Part shown: piece by piece, positions 4,824 to 54,873 of the stretch | Layout of the letters: the number at the start of each line of letters is the position of its first letter | How positions within the stretch are numbered: position 1 is the stretch's first letter | IMG/VR virus record: IMGVR_UViG_3300031576_000049 | Span: 1 to 57,453 of that record | Strand: one strand, 5' to 3' | Source of the DNA: a virus | Taxonomy: Duplodnaviria > Caudoviricetes | Length of the DNA stretch: 57,453 nucleotides | The notes under the pieces: model-generated | The model's database searches: none | Seen by the model: the letters and a program-made list of their open reading frames with translations, nothing else | Told to the model about the DNA's origin: nothing | Made by a program: the position numbers and the translations under genes

Positions 4824-4965
4824 AGCCGGGTTAGTCCGCTAAATCTCGGAGTAGCCAAGGGCGGCAAGGCTAGGGCCAACGTACTCACGTCTGATGAACG
4901 AAAAGAGATCGCCCGGAAGGCGGTGATGGCGCGGTGGGCCAAGGCCGGGAAGAAGCCAGCGAACC
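4824..4965 (+). pseudogene. Start-less fragment of a small basic 'GGKARA...IARKA..ARW' protein
   Basis: Frame reads KGGKARANVLTSDERKEIARKAVMARWAK after an in-frame TGA at 4821, with no start codon before the motif. Confidence 0.55.
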
Positions 4966-5039
4966 CCGCCGAGCAAGTATCGAACGACCTGGCCGAAATC
5001 GTAATCGAAACGGTTCATCTCCACGCTAAAGCACCACTA

Positions 5040-5624
5040 CTATTCGGAGATGCGCTGCAACCACAGGTTCAATTCGTGCTCATGGCCGGCCAGCGGACGC
5101 TCTTGGCTCTCGCCTGATCCGGCCCGTTCCGCGTAGAAGCTGACGCCATCGAGGGAATCGACGTAAACCTCAATGTTGATGCCCTTGGTGTGCCACTCGA
5201 ACTGAATTCCTCCCCGTACGGTCGGCACAATAATCGGGGGCGGCGTGGTCGGCTCCAGGAACTCGGCCAATAGTCGGATTGCCCGGATGGCATTCCGCGG
5301 CTCAATCGGCTTCGCGGAGTAGGAGTTCCACCCCGGGGGAAGCCCGAGCACGTCAACGACTCCTTGCACGCTCTTCATGAAGGCCTGGGGCATCGGGCCG
5401 CTGCCCTGAATGTCCAACGAAAACTCCGGCCTGCGGATCATGATCGTGTGCAACGTTGGCGTGGCCTGCTCCACCGCCGCTGTTATAACCTCAGGCCGAG
5501 CCAATACGTCCGGCAACGTTGACGTCGAAACCCAGGGCTCGAACTGAAGCGACAAGACCGCTTCGGCCACCGGCGGCTTCCGGAAATCGGGCAGGTTTGC
5601 GGGCCTAGCCGGCGTCAGGGCCAT
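5040..5624 (-). CDS. Hypothetical protein, possibly a TIGR04255-like N-terminus fused to an unrelated domain
   Basis: N-terminal LPDFRKPPVAEAVLSLQFEP; C-terminal LPPGWNSYSAKPI...VPTVRGGIQFEWH. Confidence 0.5.
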   Translation of the reverse strand: MALTPARPANLPDFRKPPVAEAVLSLQFEPWVSTSTLPDVLARPEVITAAVEQATPTLHTIMIRRPEFSLDIQGSGPMPQAFMKSVQGVVDVLGLPPGWNSYSAKPIEPRNAIRAIRLLAEFLEPTTPPPIIVPTVRGGIQFEWHTKGINIEVYVDSLDGVSFYAERAGSGESQERPLAGHEHELNLWLQRISE

Positions 5625-5825
5625 AGTCCAAACATTCTGTTATCGCTTCTGTTTCAATGTATCATGAAGCCGGCGTCGCAAGCGGGTTGCTGGGCAAATC
5701 TGTGTGGCTGCTGGGTGGCGGGCGGGACCGTTAGCCGGTCAACAAGTGGCGATCGAGAGTATTTACGTATGCGATCCGGCCCGAGTCCATCGAGGAGGTG
5801 CGGCAAGCTTTGAACAGCCACACCT

Positions 5826-5864
5826 GAAAAACGAAAGGGCCGCCTAGTTAAGCGCGGCCCTTTC
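5826..5864 (-). terminator. Rho-independent terminator
   Basis: 11-bp stem GAAAGGGCCGC/GCGGCCCTTTC followed on the minus strand by GTTTTT. Confidence 0.75.
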
Positions 5865-5882
5865 AAAGCAATTTGCGCTTCA

Positions 5883-5957
5883 GGGGGTGAACGCGGGTTC
5901 CGGCCAGCCCTAATCAAGCTCACGCCGGGCGGGTTCGATTCCCCGCCGCCTCCACCA
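5883..5957 (+). ncRNA. tmRNA-like tRNA-domain-only element (75 nt)
   Basis: Acceptor stem GGGGGTG/CGCCTCC with G3:U70, ACCA end, T-arm GCGGG-TTCGATT-(C)CCCGC, stemless D-loop, short CCGGC/GCCGG helix; no canonical anticodon arm. Confidence 0.55.
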
Positions 5958-5994
5958 CCGAGTGAACCTCTTGCTCAGGGAGGCTCTACGTGTT

Positions 5995-6024
5995 TTTATA
6001 CCATATCAGGGGACCACCAGTCAA
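5995..6024 (-). promoter_or_regulatory. Sigma70-type promoter firing antisense to the tRNA-like element
   Basis: TTGACT-N18-TATAAA with extended -10 (TGG TATAAA). Confidence 0.65.
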
Positions 6025-6047
6025 GGGCAAGTTTAGGACACTGCCTG

Positions 6048-6077
6048 TTGACCGGCGGTCCGCGATTGTGGTAACGT
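6048..6077 (+). promoter_or_regulatory. Sigma70-type promoter for terS
   Basis: TTGACC-N18-TAACGT with TGn extension, divergent from the 5995..6024 promoter. Confidence 0.5.
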
Positions 6078-6118
6078 CTATGTAGCCTTGTCACCTTTAA
6101 GGAACGGGCGGAAACAGT

Positions 6119-6682
6119 ATGTATGGGCCGGAGGTAGTGCCGGGGAAAATCGTCAGCAAATTGAGGCACGTCAAGAAGCGCGTCTTCCTGAAAGCGTTTG
6201 TCGAGGCCGGAACTTTACTGGGCGCCGAGCGATTAAGTAAGATCAGCCGGGACCATCATTACTACGAATGGCGGCATGATCCAGAATATATGGCGGCATT
6301 TGAGGATGCGAAGGAACAGGCGATCCAGCGCCTGGAAACAGCGTTGCGGAAGCGGGCGATCGAGCGGAGTGACACAGCGGCGATCTTTTTATTGAAGGCG
6401 GCGCGGCCGGAAATCTATCGAGATGTGATTTTAGGACAGAACAATATGCCGCCGGTGAACGTAAATGTCGGGCTTTTAATCGGGTTTCCGAAGTCGCCAG
6501 ACGCCAAGCCGAGGGAATTACCGGCAGCGCCCGGCATGTTTCCGGCAAACGTGGCGAGTTCTATCAAAATGGTTGAGAATCCGGCGAATGCCGGTGAATT
6601 ACCGCCAGCCGGGTTGTCGGCGAAGGGGAGGCGGCGTCCGGCGACGCGGAAGGCGCGGCGGAGGCGGAAGCACCCTGCTTGA
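6119..6682 (+). CDS. terS: Probable terminase small subunit (HTH)
   Basis: KKRVFLKAF...YYEWRHDPEYMAAFEDAKEQAIQRLETALRKRA...SDTAAIFLLKAARPEIYRD, a pattern typical of TerS. Confidence 0.7.
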   Translation: MYGPEVVPGKIVSKLRHVKKRVFLKAFVEAGTLLGAERLSKISRDHHYYEWRHDPEYMAAFEDAKEQAIQRLETALRKRAIERSDTAAIFLLKAARPEIYRDVILGQNNMPPVNVNVGLLIGFPKSPDAKPRELPAAPGMFPANVASSIKMVENPANAGELPPAGLSAKGRRRPATRKARRRRKHPA

Positions 6683-6827
6683 CGGCGGAATCCACTTCGT
6701 CCTGGTCGAACAGCAGGCGGCGGCCGAGGCGGTGGGTAGGCAGGATGCCCTGATGGCTGAGTCGGCGGAGGGTGGTTTTGGAGGTCTTCAGGTAGACCGC
6801 CAGCTCGCCCAGGGTAAGCCAGGTCAC
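6564..6827 (-). CDS. Excisionase-family HTH (HTH_17) DNA-binding protein
   Basis: WLTLGELAVYLKTSKTTLRRL...GILPTHRLGRRLLFDQDEVD. Confidence 0.85.
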   Translation of the reverse strand: MTWLTLGELAVYLKTSKTTLRRLSHQGILPTHRLGRRLLFDQDEVDSAVKQGASASAAPSASPDAASPSPTTRLAVIHRHSPDSQPF

Positions 6828-7486: not shown

Positions 7487-7882
7487 TTACTCTCCTGTGG
7501 TGATAAGATGCTCAATCCGCAGTACGACCACGCGGGCGAACCCTGGGGTCCCTTCGTCATAGTATGACCCTCGGGTTGCCAAAGGCAACATATGCTGGAA
7601 CCGCTCGGGCCAGGCTGCCACCTCGAACAGCGTTTCGCCCTCATCGACCGTCAGTCCGAGGTTCCTCCGTGCTTGCTCCCGCACCTGAGACAGGTTTGGG
7701 TCCCCCCCGAACAACAGAACAGCCCACCCGGCGATACAGGCTGCCGTGCCGCAAGGCGGAAAATCGTACGACTTAAAACTGGGGACGTTTTCGTCCTTAC
7801 GGACGTAGTACGAGGCCATGATACACCGACGCGGATCCTCCAATATGTGTGTGGTGATCCGCCGCAGTAATTCCACGTTCAT
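7487..7882 (-). CDS. Hypothetical protein, CGxxACxAG family copy 1
   Basis: MNVELLRRITTHILEDP...CGTAACIAGWA; GGAGG RBS. Confidence 0.8.
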   Translation of the reverse strand: MNVELLRRITTHILEDPRRCIMASYYVRKDENVPSFKSYDFPPCGTAACIAGWAVLLFGGDPNLSQVREQARRNLGLTVDEGETLFEVAAWPERFQHMLPLATRGSYYDEGTPGFARVVVLRIEHLITTGE

Positions 7883-8262
7883 GTTTGTTCCCTCCTTTCC
7901 CACAACTGCGGAGATTCCAGGGCGTCCAAAACCATACCCGCAACACGCGCCCGTTGCTTTGCGCTCTTCGCCGCGTTCCACATTACGAGGAACTTCTTAG
8001 GCCAGCTGTTTAGGAAACATGCTTTGTCCGCCAAACTGTAATCGATCTGGAGCTCCCGAGCAAACGAAAATACGTTGACCACATCGTGCTTGCTCCCTCC
8101 GGCTAATATGTGTGCCCACCCCGCAAAGCAGCCAATGGTACCACAACTCGGGCGTTGCTCGGGGCGAACATGACGTAAACTGGTAAACCAATTGTGTATG
8201 TCCAGCCGCTTTGGCTCTTCGAGGATGTGGGCCTTGATTCGATTCTTCAATTCTACGTTCAT
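7879..8262 (-). CDS. Hypothetical protein, CGxxACxAG family copy 2
   Basis: MNVELKNRIKAHILEEP...CGTIGCFAGWA; AAGGAG RBS. Confidence 0.8.
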   Translation of the reverse strand: MNVELKNRIKAHILEEPKRLDIHNWFTSLRHVRPEQRPSCGTIGCFAGWAHILAGGSKHDVVNVFSFARELQIDYSLADKACFLNSWPKKFLVMWNAAKSAKQRARVAGMVLDALESPQLWERREQT

Positions 8263-8351
8263 GGGTTTTCTCCTTTTGAACTCAAGAAGTAGTGAACTCG
8301 TACCACCGTGGTCGGTGAGAACCATGTCGGTTGTCAAGTGAAATCGAAACT

Positions 8352-8618
8352 TCATCTTGATTCTTCATGTCTGCTCCTAGCGGCCACAGCGAGATTGCAG
8401 GCGAACCCGGCGAGCGCCCGGACGAACGCTGCCTCTCCGACCTCTCTGGTCTTGTGCCGCAAGCGGGCCGCGCTCTTGATGTGGATCTTTCGATCCGTGG
8501 CGGTGTTGACCCCGCACCAGCCACCGTAGGGTGACTCATAGGTGATTCGGACGCGGGCGAGCTTGCCGCTGACCTTGACGATGTAGGTGGCTCCAATTTC
8601 GACTTGAGATTTCTTCAT
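8352..8618 (-). CDS. Small basic protein, paralog of 9019..9378
   Basis: [34 protein letters not shown]. Confidence 0.75.
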   Translation of the reverse strand: MKKSQVEIGATYIVKVSGKLARVRITYESPYGGWCGVNTATDRKIHIKSAARLRHKTREVGEAAFVRALAGFACNLAVAARSRHEESR

Positions 8619-14172: not shown

Positions 14173-15138
14173 ATGGCACAGGAACCCAACACTCTTCAAG
14201 AAGCGATCCTCTACTTCGCCAATCCCGATAATTGCCGGGACTACTTGGTGCGACGGCGCTGGCCGAACGGCGTCATCTGCCCCCGCTGCGGGAGCCAAAA
14301 AGTAGCTCTCCTAGAGAAGTACAACCGTTGGCAGTGCAGCGCGACCCACGACGCCCGACAGTTCACCGCCAAGACCGGCACCATCTTCGAGGACAGCCCG
14401 ATTGGCTTAGACAAGTGGCTGCTGGCGATGTGGCAGATCGTGAATTGCAAGAACGGCGTCAGCAGCTATGAGATTCACCGGGCCATCGGCGTCACCCAAA
14501 AGACCGCATGGTTCATGGATCACCGCATCCGGCTGGCGCTACAAGGGAAAGAGGGTGGGAAGCTCTCCGGCGAGGTCGAGGTAGACGAGACCTTCATTGG
14601 CGGCAAGGCCCGCAACATGCACTTGAGCAGGCGGCGGAAGAAGATCACCAAGTCAGGCCCGCACGACAAGGTGCCTGTCCTCGGTATCTTGCAGCGGGGC
14701 GGGAAGGTGCGAACCGTGGTGGTGCCCGACCGGAAGAAGAACACTCTCCAGGGCACCGTGAAGGAGCATGTGGAAGCGGGCGCGGCGATCTTCACAGATG
14801 AACTGCTGTCCTACGACGGACTGGAGAGGGACTACGCCCACCAGATCATCGATCATGCGGTAGAATACGTTCGGGGCGCCGTGCACACCAACACCATGGA
14901 GAACTTCTGGAGTCTGGCGAAGCGCGGGCTGCACGGCACATACATCAGTGTGGAGCCGTTCCATCTGTTTCGATACTTCGACGAGCAGGCGTTCCGCTAC
15001 AACAACCGAAAGGACGGAGACGGCGAACTGATGAACGACGGGCAGCGGTTTAGCCTTGCGCTGTCGCAGATTGTCGGGAAGCGCCTGACTTGGAACCGGC
15101 TGACTGGGAAGGAGGATTCCGAGCGGGTCAGGGCATGA
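14173..15138 (+). CDS. IS1595-family DDE transposase with Zn ribbon
   Basis: RWPNGVICPRCGS, GTIFEDS, VEVDETFIGG, IFTDE, HTNTMENFWS, FRYNNR. Leaderless promoter TTGACA-N17-TATGCT lies within the left end. Confidence 0.95.
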   Translation: MAQEPNTLQEAILYFANPDNCRDYLVRRRWPNGVICPRCGSQKVALLEKYNRWQCSATHDARQFTAKTGTIFEDSPIGLDKWLLAMWQIVNCKNGVSSYEIHRAIGVTQKTAWFMDHRIRLALQGKEGGKLSGEVEVDETFIGGKARNMHLSRRRKKITKSGPHDKVPVLGILQRGGKVRTVVVPDRKKNTLQGTVKEHVEAGAAIFTDELLSYDGLERDYAHQIIDHAVEYVRGAVHTNTMENFWSLAKRGLHGTYISVEPFHLFRYFDEQAFRYNNRKDGDGELMNDGQRFSLALSQIVGKRLTWNRLTGKEDSERVRA

Positions 15139-19531: not shown

Positions 19532-21658
19532 ATGCCCGGCAGAACCCCGCACCAGCGCGCCCAGCGTCGGGCGGCTATTGAGCAGCGAGCTGCCCTCGCC
19601 GCCGCCGCCCCAAACCAGCCACGACCACCCGCCACCGCCCTCTCGCTCGCCGAAGTCGGCCTCGCCCGCACCGCCGGCGGTCGGCCCCTTTGGGTGCCTA
19701 TCCCCTGCACCGGCTGTTCGACGCACGAGGAAGTGTTTGCCGGTCTAGAGATCGGCCGCGGCTTCATCCTTCAGGATGGTCCCCGTGTCACCTGCTCCCA
19801 ATGCGGCGGCACCGGCCTTGGCCCCCAGGGTGAGGCGCTGCTGGCCCCGCAGTTTGAGATCTTCCTGGGCGGTGCCAAGGGTGGCGCGAAAACCGATTGC
19901 GGCATCGCCTTCCTGATTGCCGGGGACCGGAACGTGCTGAACTTGGCACTCAGCGGCGTGGCTGATCCTATCTCGATGTCTTACACGAACCATCCGCACT
20001 ACCGCGGCATGGTGTTGCGGAAGAATCAGCGCGATCTGGACGCTTGGATCGATCGCGCCCGCATGATTTACGAACCGTTGGGCGCTGAGTTCGTGCATGG
20101 CCCAGCGCACTTCCGGTTTCCGTCAGGCGCCAAGATCGTCACCGGGCACCTTGGCGATGCGGACGCTTACGAGAAATATTCCGGCGTTGAGACGCATCGC
20201 ATGGTCATTGAGGAGGCGACGCAGATTCCGTCGCTCGAACTCTACATGCGCGTCCGGTCGTGCTGCCGTTCGTCCTGGCCGGAGTTGAAACCGCAGATCC
20301 TTCTGACCGGCAACCCTGACGGGCCAGGCCTGGCCTGGGTCAAAGACCGCTTCGTGCAACCGACCGTCGCTGGTTCTCCGGTCCCGCCTAAGACGCCGGT
20401 CGAAGAGGAATATACCCACCCCTTCACCGGCGAGCGACACAAGATCAGCCGCGTCTTCATTCCGGCCGGTCTCAGCGACAATCCTTACCTGCTGCGGGAT
20501 GAGAGTTATGTAATGAATCTAATGTCGCTTGACGACCGCTTGCGCCGAGCCTACCTCGACGGCGACTGGTCGGTCATGGGCGGAACATATTTCGACGAGT
20601 TCCGCCGGACGCCTTTGGCTGGCGAGCCGCAGAACGCTCGGCACGTCGTCGCCACCGACTCCACCCCGCTTGCCCCCTGGTGGCCGCGCCTGGTTGGCGG
20701 CGACTGGGGCTATACCCACGAGTCGGCCTTCCTGTGGGCCGCCGGTTCGCCGGACGGCGCCATCGATGTTTATCGCGAGAAGGTCTTCAGCCGGGTTTCC
20801 GCCGTTGAGGTTGGCGTCGAGATTGCTCTTGCCACCAGAGACGAGTTGAACGCCCTGCCAGGCCGCGCCGTCATCTTATACTTGTCGCACGACGCCTTCG
20901 GGCCGCGCACCGACGAGCGCTGGATCGCTGAACTGATTGGCCAGGGTATCGGCCAAGTGCTGGGGCCGGACGCCGTCTATCTGCCGGACTTGAAGGTTCG
21001 GCAATTACGGCTTGCCGTGGAGGCTGACCCTGCGGCTATGCGCATCGAGGAGTTTGACGCCGCCTCCCAATCGGTTTACGCCCACCGTCGGGCCGGCATT
21101 ACCATCCGCCGAGCGCCTGCCGCCCGCATTACCGGCTGGCAATATTGTCGGGAAGCCCTGCGGTGGCGATCTTCGACGCCGCCGCCCGGCGAAATCGACT
21201 GGGAATTGGCGTTGCAGGTCTTCCGGCGCGGCGGTCTGAAGCCATATGAAGAGTATCTGCGATCCTTTGAGGCCGCCCGCCGAGTCGAAGTCCTGCCGCG
21301 CCTGCGCATCCGGGACTGTTGCCCCCGGCTGATCGACGCCATCCCCCGGGCGGTGCGCGATCCTGAGAACATCGAGGACGTGTGGAAGAAGCACTTCACC
21401 GGCATGGACTTGCTTGACGCCTGGCGATACCTGATGATGGGATGGAGGGCGGAGTCGGCCATTGTCCGGGATGAGGCGGCGGTCCGGGCCGAGCAACTTG
21501 CCGCCCTTGCCGACGTGGCGGAACGGATTCAGGCGGACCGTTTCCTGGCGGCTAAGGCGGCCGAAAATCGGCCCCGGCCGATCTCGATTCCACGCGCCGC
21601 CCGGGTGTTGCGGTCAGCCACAAGATTGGCCGGGTCGGCCGGCCGGTGGCTGATGTAG
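19532..21658 (+). CDS. terL: Terminase large subunit
   Basis: Walker A GGAKGGAKT, Walker B MVIEEATQ, LTGNP, DNPYL, AYLDGDW, nuclease GGDWG and DLLDAWRY. Confidence 0.95.
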   Translation: MPGRTPHQRAQRRAAIEQRAALAAAAPNQPRPPATALSLAEVGLARTAGGRPLWVPIPCTGCSTHEEVFAGLEIGRGFILQDGPRVTCSQCGGTGLGPQGEALLAPQFEIFLGGAKGGAKTDCGIAFLIAGDRNVLNLALSGVADPISMSYTNHPHYRGMVLRKNQRDLDAWIDRARMIYEPLGAEFVHGPAHFRFPSGAKIVTGHLGDADAYEKYSGVETHRMVIEEATQIPSLELYMRVRSCCRSSWPELKPQILLTGNPDGPGLAWVKDRFVQPTVAGSPVPPKTPVEEEYTHPFTGERHKISRVFIPAGLSDNPYLLRDESYVMNLMSLDDRLRRAYLDGDWSVMGGTYFDEFRRTPLAGEPQNARHVVATDSTPLAPWWPRLVGGDWGYTHESAFLWAAGSPDGAIDVYREKVFSRVSAVEVGVEIALATRDELNALPGRAVILYLSHDAFGPRTDERWIAELIGQGIGQVLGPDAVYLPDLKVRQLRLAVEADPAAMRIEEFDAASQSVYAHRRAGITIRRAPAARITGWQYCREALRWRSSTPPPGEIDWELALQVFRRGGLKPYEEYLRSFEAARRVEVLPRLRIRDCCPRLIDAIPRAVRDPENIEDVWKKHFTGMDLLDAWRYLMMGWRAESAIVRDEAAVRAEQLAALADVAERIQADRFLAAKAAENRPRPISIPRAARVLRSATRLAGSAGRWLM

Positions 21659-28292: not shown

Positions 28293-29054
28293 ATGGCTTA
28301 CAACGATCCCTATCGCTCGACGACTCTTTATCCGCCGAAGACGGCACCGGGCATGGCCTTTGCCCAGCAAAACCTAGCGCCACGCGCGCCGTTCCCTTGG
28401 CAAGATTCGACTGACAGATCGACAGTGGGTTTCGATCCTAACTTCCAGTCTTATACGGAACCCGCCAGAGAAGAAGAATGGTATTCGCCAATTGATCCCA
28501 ATTTTCAGCCTTATACGGGGCCGCCTCGGGAAGAACGGCGGTATCCGCCAGGTGCTCACTTACCATCGAGCCGGCCGCCAGCGGGCTTGCGGTCGTCGAT
28601 GCCCACGTTGTATCCTGGGGGCGGGTTTCCTGAGCGCCGCTACACCTCAGACTACGCTCCGGGCTACGCTGGCCGTTACGGCACGAACTTGCGCTTTCCC
28701 CAATTTTACGGAGGGCCCTCCGTCCTCCGTAACTATCCCGACCGGAATCAATGGCCCGCCCGTCCGGTGGGTTATGCCCCAGGCTACGCTGGCGGCTATG
28801 GCACGAACTTTCGCCAACCTCGGTTTGCCCCGCCAGGCCACCGGCAAAGGGACCTGCCTTACGGATTAGGTTTGCGGCCACCGCCGTACGCACCAGACCG
28901 GCCTGCGGAATATGGTGGTGCCGCGCCAGGCTATCTCGACTTTCTCGACCGCCGGCGGCGGGACCTGCCTTACGGATTGCGGTCGCGACCACCGATACCG
29001 CGTTACCGCTCGCCTGAGATTGGCTATCCAGCCCAGCGGATGTACGATCTTTAA
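28293..29054 (+). CDS. Low-complexity Pro/Tyr/Gly/Arg repeat protein
   Basis: Paired repeats DPNFQ.YT.P.REE, YAPGYAG.YGTN and RDLPYGL. Confidence 0.6.
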   Translation: MAYNDPYRSTTLYPPKTAPGMAFAQQNLAPRAPFPWQDSTDRSTVGFDPNFQSYTEPAREEEWYSPIDPNFQPYTGPPREERRYPPGAHLPSSRPPAGLRSSMPTLYPGGGFPERRYTSDYAPGYAGRYGTNLRFPQFYGGPSVLRNYPDRNQWPARPVGYAPGYAGGYGTNFRQPRFAPPGHRQRDLPYGLGLRPPPYAPDRPAEYGGAAPGYLDFLDRRRRDLPYGLRSRPPIPRYRSPEIGYPAQRMYDL

Positions 29055-54783: not shown

Positions 54784-54873
54784 TGGCGGAGGAAGGGGGA
54801 TTCGAACCCCCGAGGGCCTTTCGACCCTATCAGTTTTCGGGACTGCCGCCTTCAACCGCTCGGCCATTCCTCC
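54784..54873 (-). tRNA. tRNA-Ser(CGA)
   Basis: GGAGGAA acceptor, D-arm, anticodon loop CCCGAAA, long variable arm, TTCGAAT T-loop, G73 and encoded CCA; TAAAAT -10 just upstream. Confidence 0.9.

Follow-up and report, generated by a model that had tools for sequence, protein, structure and literature searches.

Known tmRNAs reduced to the tRNA-like domain

Trans-translation is the main bacterial pathway of ribosome rescue and protein tagging; it affects phage growth and is pursued as an antibiotic target. The experiment on tmRNA inhibition that matters here reportedly stems from Mao et al. 2009. In the sections of Hudson, Lau and Williams (2014; PMC4131195) drawn on here, 'Mycobacterium phage DS6A (TLD only)' is listed, and a DS6A-like molecule is described as strongly inhibiting tmRNA, perhaps through SmpB titration. 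The corresponding part of the tmRNA database paper of 2025 (PMC11915505) likewise reports tmRNA inhibition by a DS6A-like TLD-only RNA, and describes CDS-less tmRNAs in jakobid mitochondria and Mallomonadaceae plastids. In the literature that we searched, DS6A is the single documented case of a natural tag-less tmRNA mimic in a phage, and we found there no survey of TLD-only RNAs in phages; the tmRNA database tables may list more CDS-less phage entries. Full two-piece phage tmRNAs are reported in the part of the Melnitz phage paper (PMC9004378) used here. The AcrIIIA1 paper (PMC11662646) was set aside, since the part considered deals with cleaved host t(m)RNA fragments and hence has no bearing on the present element.

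The TLD-only tmRNA of DS6A (L241) lies at 28478-28560 on the plus strand, between gp33 and gp34 and on their strand, and has no GenBank annotation. We compared it with a 75-nt element at 5883-5957 (+) of the window, by which we mean the whole stretch of 57,453 nt that was analysed. Both are unannotated phage RNAs, 75-83 nt long, that share with tmRNA the acceptor stem, G3:U70 and the T-arm, both have a P2-like stem closed by a small hairpin in place of any tag reading frame or pseudoknots, and both match end to end a covariance model (R1) that we built from 57 other phage mini-tmRNAs, with the window excluded. DS6A has a 7-nt T loop, UCGAC and AAAACCGC..GCGG motifs and a CUA end instead of CCA, and its RNA lies between co-oriented genes of a temperate phage with an integrase. 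The window element, in contrast, has an 8-nt T loop, lacks the UCGAC and AAAACCGC..GCGG motifs and encodes CCA, and lies between divergent genes in a phage that has no integrase, with antisense signals on both sides.

The one-piece tmRNA (RF00023) shares with the element both ends, the alanine identity elements and the T-arm, whereas 318 of its 374 model positions are missing from the element, so that the element cannot act as an mRNA. The organellar CDS-less tmRNAs, which we liken to it by the descriptions in the part of the database paper used, likewise retain only the tRNA-like domain (upwards of about 65 nt, no tag frame); they differ in being non-viral and in co-occurring with imported SmpB, and are thought to be rescue aids.

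A tmRNA-derived element in a complete phage genome

The record is a complete virus genome of 57,453 bp with a terminal repeat of 127 bp and a G+C content of 62%. It encodes a large terminase, a portal-like protein, a family-A-type DNA polymerase, an exonuclease, a DNA methyltransferase and an IS1595-type transposase; the large terminase gene (19532-21658) lies 13 kb from a small-terminase-like gene at 6119-6682. Six-frame searches of the whole phage genome gave no match to PF00589 or PF00239, that is, no tyrosine integrase or resolvase, and detected no SmpB gene. The sole canonical tRNA of the phage is a tRNA-Ser (CGA) at 54784-54873 (-) with an encoded CCA end.

No close relative of the phage turned up among GenBank phages, viral contigs or metagenome contigs. 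Positions 5600-6700 had no blastn match among GenBank phages, for the small-terminase-like protein no relative was confirmed among viral or metagenome contigs, and the exact 30-mer of the T-arm was not found in viral contigs. The runs listed as containing the region are two DNA runs of one cave-metagenome sample, of which one may be the source, with no RNA run among them. The features of the element are as follows.

5883..5957, plus strand: candidate TLD-only (tag-less) mini-tmRNA, 75 nt, from Rfam RF00023, model R1 and base pairs read from the sequence
5883-5889 with 5947-5953, plus strand: acceptor stem, 7 bp, GGGGGUG/CGCCUCC, with G3:U70 and U6:G wobbles
5900-5904 with 5924-5928, plus strand: P2-like stem CCGGC/GCCGG closing the middle, read from the sequence
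5929-5933 with 5942-5946, plus strand: T stem GCGGG/CCCGC, read from the sequence
5934-5941, plus strand: T loop of 8 nt with one extra C at 5941, read from the sequence
5954-5957, plus strand: discriminator A and CCA, read from the sequence
5964..5998, plus strand: weak hairpin just past the CCA end, 6 pairs with one mismatch, followed by GTGTTTTTAT, read from the sequence

The Rfam tmRNA model RF00023 aligned to the element from end to end (model positions 1-374), 21 nt standing in for 318 internal positions, and scored it at 34.3 bits (E 3.7e-12), under the gathering threshold of 47 bits. The hallmarks of the tRNA-like domain of tmRNA are present, i.e., an acceptor stem with G3:U70, a T-arm, a discriminator A and CCA, and all base pairs read from the sequence are intact (7/7 in the acceptor stem and 5/5 in the T stem), including a compensating U:G. 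The RF00023 alignment of the element lacks the mRNA-like domain and with it the resume codon, the tag reading frame and the pseudoknots. The description of this element as tmRNA-like in the sequence-only reading, which preceded our analysis, was thus borne out by both RF00023 and R1.

The element also has unusual traits. The canonical 7-nt T loop and the elbow motifs (GG.UUCGAC and GGAC) were not found; UUCGAC and GGAC are both incomplete and shortened by two positions. The last 28 nt equal those of many bacterial tmRNAs except for one inserted C. The phage contig contains this additional C (5941) at a depth of 181; many 31-nt contigs without it have a summed depth of about 7000 and most plausibly represent the ends of bacterial tmRNAs from the same sample. 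An 8-nt T loop occurred in none of the 77 other non-tRNA family sequences and in none of 122 bacterial matches, and both search patterns permitted it. ARAGORN called no tmRNA at 5883..5957, and the fold energy of the sense strand was unexceptional (z -1.18; 21 of 200 shuffles equally stable).

Signals for transcription of the sense strand were sparse, as the sequence-only reading had noted of promoters. No sigma-70-like sense promoter with at least 10/12 matches was found within 120 nt upstream, and the sole plus-strand promoter candidate in 5600-5895 reached 8/12. The hairpin at 5964..5998 is a possible weak sense terminator; it pairs better on the minus strand, where it would lie at the 5' end of the putative antisense RNA, and neither terminator scan listed it. 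The element lies upstream of the small-terminase-like gene and is co-oriented with it. The left neighbour is encoded on the other strand, so there is no obvious plus-strand read-through to supply the RNA.

A family of TLD-only RNAs in phages

We searched viral contigs with a pattern in which GGGG..GA, GGGTTCGA and CTCCACCA were fixed and 30-60 and 10-16 bases were free. The pattern yielded 112 viral loci with 91 distinct sequences, or 92 with the window, and ARAGORN called 14 of these 92 as tRNAs. Among the remaining 78, the three free acceptor pairs were all formed in 60, and the full T stem was present in 73 of the 74 with canonical spacing, with many compensatory changes. Leaving out the 14 tRNA calls, 20 further sequences and the window gave a set of 57 sequences with perfect acceptor and T stems, i.e., at least 57 distinct mini-tmRNAs spread over 72 loci (L003-L114). 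Pair counts for these two stems are circular in this set, which was chosen for perfect stems. The P2 stem lay outside the selection criteria and covaries, with 22-29 of the 57 sequences changed on both sides at each pair.

Model R1 scored the window element at 39.8 bits from end to end (E 1.9e-6), its best match in the window. The tRNA-Ser of the same phage scored 27.6 bits, which leaves a margin of about 12 bits above a true tRNA, and DS6A scored 54.0 bits at 28478-28560. Like DS6A, the element combines a tRNA-like domain of the ~65-90-nt class and a short stem-loop joint with a match to R1. Across the family, G3:U70, the discriminator A, an encoded CCA and loop motifs of the tmRNA type are retained. 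Sequence comparison thereby shows that the element is homologous to tmRNA at both ends and belongs to a large phage family that includes DS6A; judged by its sequence, it is a somewhat aberrant member of a known, barely studied kind of phage tmRNA that consists of the TLD only.

In the nearest subtype (L067 and L235), TLD identity was 76/77, with flank identities of 157/200 and 147/169, and these changes indicate that the TLD of the relatives is under purifying selection. The subtype pattern was found in only two metagenome contigs, both of the L067 type and belonging to a different phage. In a lineage of seven loci (L026, L033, L037, L046, L054, L097 and L111) the prohead protease and major capsid genes flank the element and share its strand, other family members adjoin terminase or portal genes, and one relative (L074) is placed between a Clp-type protease gene and a small terminase gene. 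Mini-tmRNAs of this kind are common and unannotated in phage genomes, often within head and packaging modules.

The family also informs on the strand that is used. In the 58 sequences that qualified out of 74, the free stem positions had 10 G:U pairs vs 1 A:C. ORFs flanking the element at up to 600 nt were on its strand in 80 cases and on the opposite strand in 23 (by a crude ORF caller); per locus, both flanks agreed with it in 29, were mixed in 16 and were both opposite in 1. All 35 tRNAs within 1.5 kb were on the same strand and none on the opposite one (10 of 57 loci). Own signals were rare at the 56 loci scanned, with a sense promoter in 2, a sense terminator in 3, an antisense promoter in 2 and an antisense terminator in 1; 54 of the 56 relatives have no sense promoter, and none has an antisense promoter and terminator together. 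The family behaves as a sense-strand RNA gene. The earlier suggestion that the minus strand carries the functional RNA thus found no backing among homologues, whose G:U pairs and co-oriented genes point to the sense strand and which do not conserve the promoter and terminator.

Signals on the minus strand and the divergent region

The minus strand of the region carries the following features, listed with those on their right.

5040..5624, minus strand: 194-aa leftward gene with GC3 0.77, downstream of the minus-strand promoter and terminator
5864..5826, minus strand: intrinsic-terminator-like hairpin followed by TTTTT, from our own scan
6024..5995, minus strand: sigma-70-type extended -10 promoter-like site, TTGACT-18-TGgTATAAA, read from the sequence and from the genome scan
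6011..6061, both strands: inverted repeat of TTGACTGGTGGTCC (minus) and TTGACCGGCGGTCC (plus), the only two exact matches in the window
6048..6077, plus strand: promoter-like site TTGACC-18-TGgTAACGT with a weak -10, facing gene 6119-6682, found by eye
6119..6682, plus strand: 187-aa gene, terminase small subunit/DNA-binding protein-like (PHROG 4044, E 1.9e-10)

The extended -10 promoter that the sequence-only reading had placed on the minus strand is indeed there as a near-consensus sequence, with TTGACT at 6024..6019, a spacer of 18 nt, TG at 6003..6002 and TATAAA at 6000..5995; transcription is expected to start near 5988. In our scan of the genome only 7 sites, this one included, matched both hexamers at 5/6 or better, and 30 block shuffles gave a mean of 1.1 and a maximum of 4. 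Four of the six other strong promoter-like sites lie in gaps upstream of same-strand genes, so the phage appears to use such promoters for genes. The U-tailed terminator proposed at 5826..5864 also held up: its 11-nt arms (5833-5843 and 5854-5864) are 100% complementary and are followed by TTTTT, the complement of 5827-5831. None of the 6 other distinct terminator-like sites was as strong (at most 6 GC, vs 11-12 bp and 7-8 GC here), in a scan whose total of 12 rows was barely above that of 10 shuffles (1-10 rows). Both scans were home-made heuristics applied to the whole genome. A rule-based signal scan accepted only -10 elements with T in sixth place and loops of up to 8 nt, and because of these rules listed neither the promoter nor the hairpin. 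Together, the two signals probably define a minus-strand transcript of roughly 160 nt.

By eye, the two halves of the inverted repeat resemble the -35 regions of two divergent promoter-like sites placed back to back. The rightward gene has codon-position GC of 0.60/0.46/0.66. The 194-aa product of the leftward gene had no Pfam or PHROG match, and its relatives in the Atlas were only hypothetical proteins.

Interpretation of the locus

We favour, with moderate confidence, the reading that 5883-5957 (+) is a phage gene for a tag-less mini-tmRNA and that the minus-strand unit is a feature of the divergent region rather than a weapon against the host. The short stem-loop would replace the mRNA-like domain and the pseudoknots, so that only the tRNA-like domain is kept. 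Host tRNA-processing enzymes would release the RNA, alanyl-tRNA synthetase would charge it, and SmpB and EF-Tu would bind it. The mini-tmRNA could then compete with host tmRNA and lower tagging and rescue, as reported for the DS6A-like molecule; alternatively, it may rescue stalled ribosomes without tagging. The minus-strand transcript would either be a leader, terminated ahead of the leftward genes 5624..4839, or act in cis as an antisense brake on the mini-tmRNA. Against a mini-tmRNA gene stand the missing recognisable sense promoter and terminator, the location of the best promoter-like and terminator-like signals of the region on the opposite strand, the opposite orientation of the left neighbour, the failure to detect an SmpB gene in the phage, and the traits of the element itself (unexceptional sense fold energy, 8-nt T loop, incomplete motifs and sub-threshold Rfam score).

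The window adds to DS6A a divergent member from a phage that does not look temperate. If such RNAs titrate SmpB or alanyl-tRNA synthetase, their number would imply a widespread viral switch-off of host quality control, and the antisense unit, if transcribed, would offer a simple test case for the control of a decoy.

A tentative possibility for the minus-strand unit is that of a leader or attenuator, in which the promoter drives the leftward genes 5624..4839 and the terminator 160 nt on stops most transcripts unless antitermination or read-through occurs. The short RNA would be a by-product, much like the short terminated transcript that the lambda late promoter gives, and its overlap with the mini-tmRNA would be incidental or a matter of transcriptional interference only. 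No minus-strand promoter with at least 8/12 matches lies between the terminator at 5826 and the gene start at 5624 (5826 to 5625 scanned), so the short unit may be the leader of these genes. The gene at 5040..5624 looks coding by its GC3, 4 of the 6 other strong promoter-like sites precede same-strand genes, and the promoter belongs to a back-to-back inverted pair of the kind usual in divergent control regions. However, no antiterminator or read-through signal was identified, the leftward unit has only two small ORFs, and promoter predictions made without knowledge of the host are weak. This reading concerns the bracket only and is compatible with a functional sense mini-tmRNA.

It is unlikely that the locus is a sense/antisense module, in which a tmRNA decoy is joined by a dedicated convergent antisense unit, with one of the best host-type promoters and the sole strong intrinsic terminator of the genome, so that a ribosome-rescue inhibitor is gated or timed; at its boldest, this reading would have the antisense RNA itself bind the near-universal 3' end of bacterial tmRNA. 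If a decoy/antisense module of this kind, or a small RNA (sRNA) against host tmRNA, were real, it would be the first natural viral antisense RNA directed at a tmRNA-type molecule.

We consider it decidedly unlikely that the minus-strand RNA of ~160 nt acts in cis, pairing perfectly with the sense TLD or its precursor and so silencing or timing it. Short antisense RNAs of phages and plasmids control overlapping genes; OOP RNA of lambda is an example. The minus-strand unit resembles OOP RNA and the lambda late-promoter transcript in having a host-type promoter and an intrinsic terminator within about 80-200 nt in a phage control region, where it overlaps or precedes other genes, and differs in that there is no homology, no antiterminator was identified, the overlapped gene is an RNA gene and the transcript is putative. 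The element is exactly what the promoter and terminator enclose. Simple co-folding predicted a ddG of -111.8 kcal/mol for the antisense RNA with the phage's own sense TLD, and on its own the antisense RNA forms a stable fold (z -3.23; none of 200 shuffles equally stable), a z-score that is inflated by the terminator hairpin and the mirrored tRNA-like helices. Against a cis-acting role, the bracket is not shared: both signals occurred in 0 of 56 relatives, the promoter-like one in 2 and the terminator-like one in 1.

Two further readings deny the element a function as a tmRNA mimic. It is improbable that it is a relic, i.e., a decaying captured tmRNA gene, or the attP core for integration into ssrA. 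The 3' 28 nt match bacterial tmRNA but for one inserted base, and decay could account for the T loop of 8 nt, for UUCGAC and GGAC being incomplete and for an Rfam score under the threshold. An attP pattern is shown by a Halomonas phage, in which a tmRNA 3' fragment (22.8 bits with R1) lies beside an integrase-type gene. In the window, by contrast, there is no integrase or resolvase and the genome has its own DNA polymerase, the identity to tmRNA is broken by the inserted C, and the 5' acceptor strand and closing stem are present, which attP would not need. Decay is countered by the 12 intact acceptor and T pairs, including the compensating U:G, and by the purifying selection apparent in relatives.

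A role of the tRNA-like shape as a mere processing signal, marking cuts by RNase P and the tRNA 3'-end enzymes and releasing an RNA without a role, is quite improbable. Most relatives do lack an own promoter or terminator and sit inside operons, for example in the seven-locus prohead protease/major capsid lineage. Yet such a signal would have no need for G3:U70, the discriminator A, CCA and the tmRNA-type loop motifs that are all kept across the family, and no plus-strand operon runs through the element in the window.

The sequence-only reading had inferred an sRNA that blocks trans-translation by pairing with both acceptor strands (3' and 5') of host tmRNA, and had described it as being without known example. 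The target segments sit in the acceptor and T helices of an aminoacylated, protein-bound RNA (tmRNA-SmpB). The two strings named as complementary to tmRNA ends are exact reverse complements of 5929-5957 and 5883-5891, and the transcription signals do lie on the minus strand. The antisense RNA carries the complement of the 28-nt tmRNA 3' end, which is identical in 122 bacterial matches from many phyla, too widely shared to point to a host, and very abundant in the source metagenome (the summed depth given above). Co-folding with 12 bacterial tmRNAs gave a mean ddG of -28.8 kcal/mol, compared with -4.4 for shuffled controls, so that pairing with bacterial tmRNA is predicted to be thermodynamically favourable. 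Complementarity to tmRNA ends is, however, not independent evidence, since it follows from the homology of the sense strand to tmRNA, and in the comparison with bacterial tmRNAs we found none beyond this homology. It is also imperfect: the extra C puts a 1-nt bulge in the pairing, and the phage has U6 where C6 was found in 95 of 95 bacterial tmRNAs with the same 3' strand (those of 120 loci with a locatable 5' end), which preserves the sense helix and adds an A:C mismatch for the antisense RNA against bacterial tmRNA.

Among readings of the minus-strand unit, the sRNA against host tmRNA is the least likely, and very improbable overall, since its target segments are locked in helices, the antisense RNA is predicted to hide the same segments in its own helices, the sense RNA, if made, would be expected to outcompete host tmRNA as a target, and the family constrains the sense strand and does not conserve the bracket. 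In the literature searched, including the part of PMC3166299 used, we found no natural antisense RNA against tmRNA, in agreement with the earlier statement, and such an sRNA would therefore be new. Interference with trans-translation is a reasonable idea given the inhibition of tmRNA by the DS6A-like RNA in the sources cited above, as far as these were used; an antisense sRNA as the active molecule is unsupported.

Other observations at the locus and in related elements

A TGTTGACCGGC-like motif occurs three times in the divergent intergenic region (5734-5744, 6011-6024 and 6046-6061; two on the minus and one on the plus strand), and a regulator acting on both promoters might use these copies as operators. 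The putative antisense RNA contains a 12-codon GUG-initiated frame at 5954..5916 (-) with AAGAGG 8 nt before it, noted by eye, which is probably due to chance.

Elements of the cultured phages Xanthomonas Rb1, Tunturiibacter Tunturi_4 and Stenotrophomonas IME-SM1, which had matched the 3' half, were rejected as family members. When they were examined with R1, no 5' acceptor strand that matches was found, so they are not clean TLD-only genes, and they may be pieces of permuted tmRNAs. In Tunturi_4 (L237, 1114-1528), the unannotated tmRNA 3'-end-like element (34.1 bits with R1, 5' strand mismatched) lies at most 70 nt past a gene annotated as 'RF-1 domain peptide chain release factor', a ribosome-rescue-type domain. 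In IME-SM1 (L238), the unannotated tmRNA-3'-end-like element at 1467-1528 lies in a co-oriented tRNA array, between tRNA-Leu and tRNA-Thr.

The IS1595-family transposase of the phage is encoded at 14173-15138 (+). Homologues are encoded on two unrelated viral contigs (L089, 2152-4443; L109, about 7555-8424), in both cases a few hundred bases from mini-tmRNAs. This proximity may be a coincidence, or such RNA genes may attract this insertion sequence.
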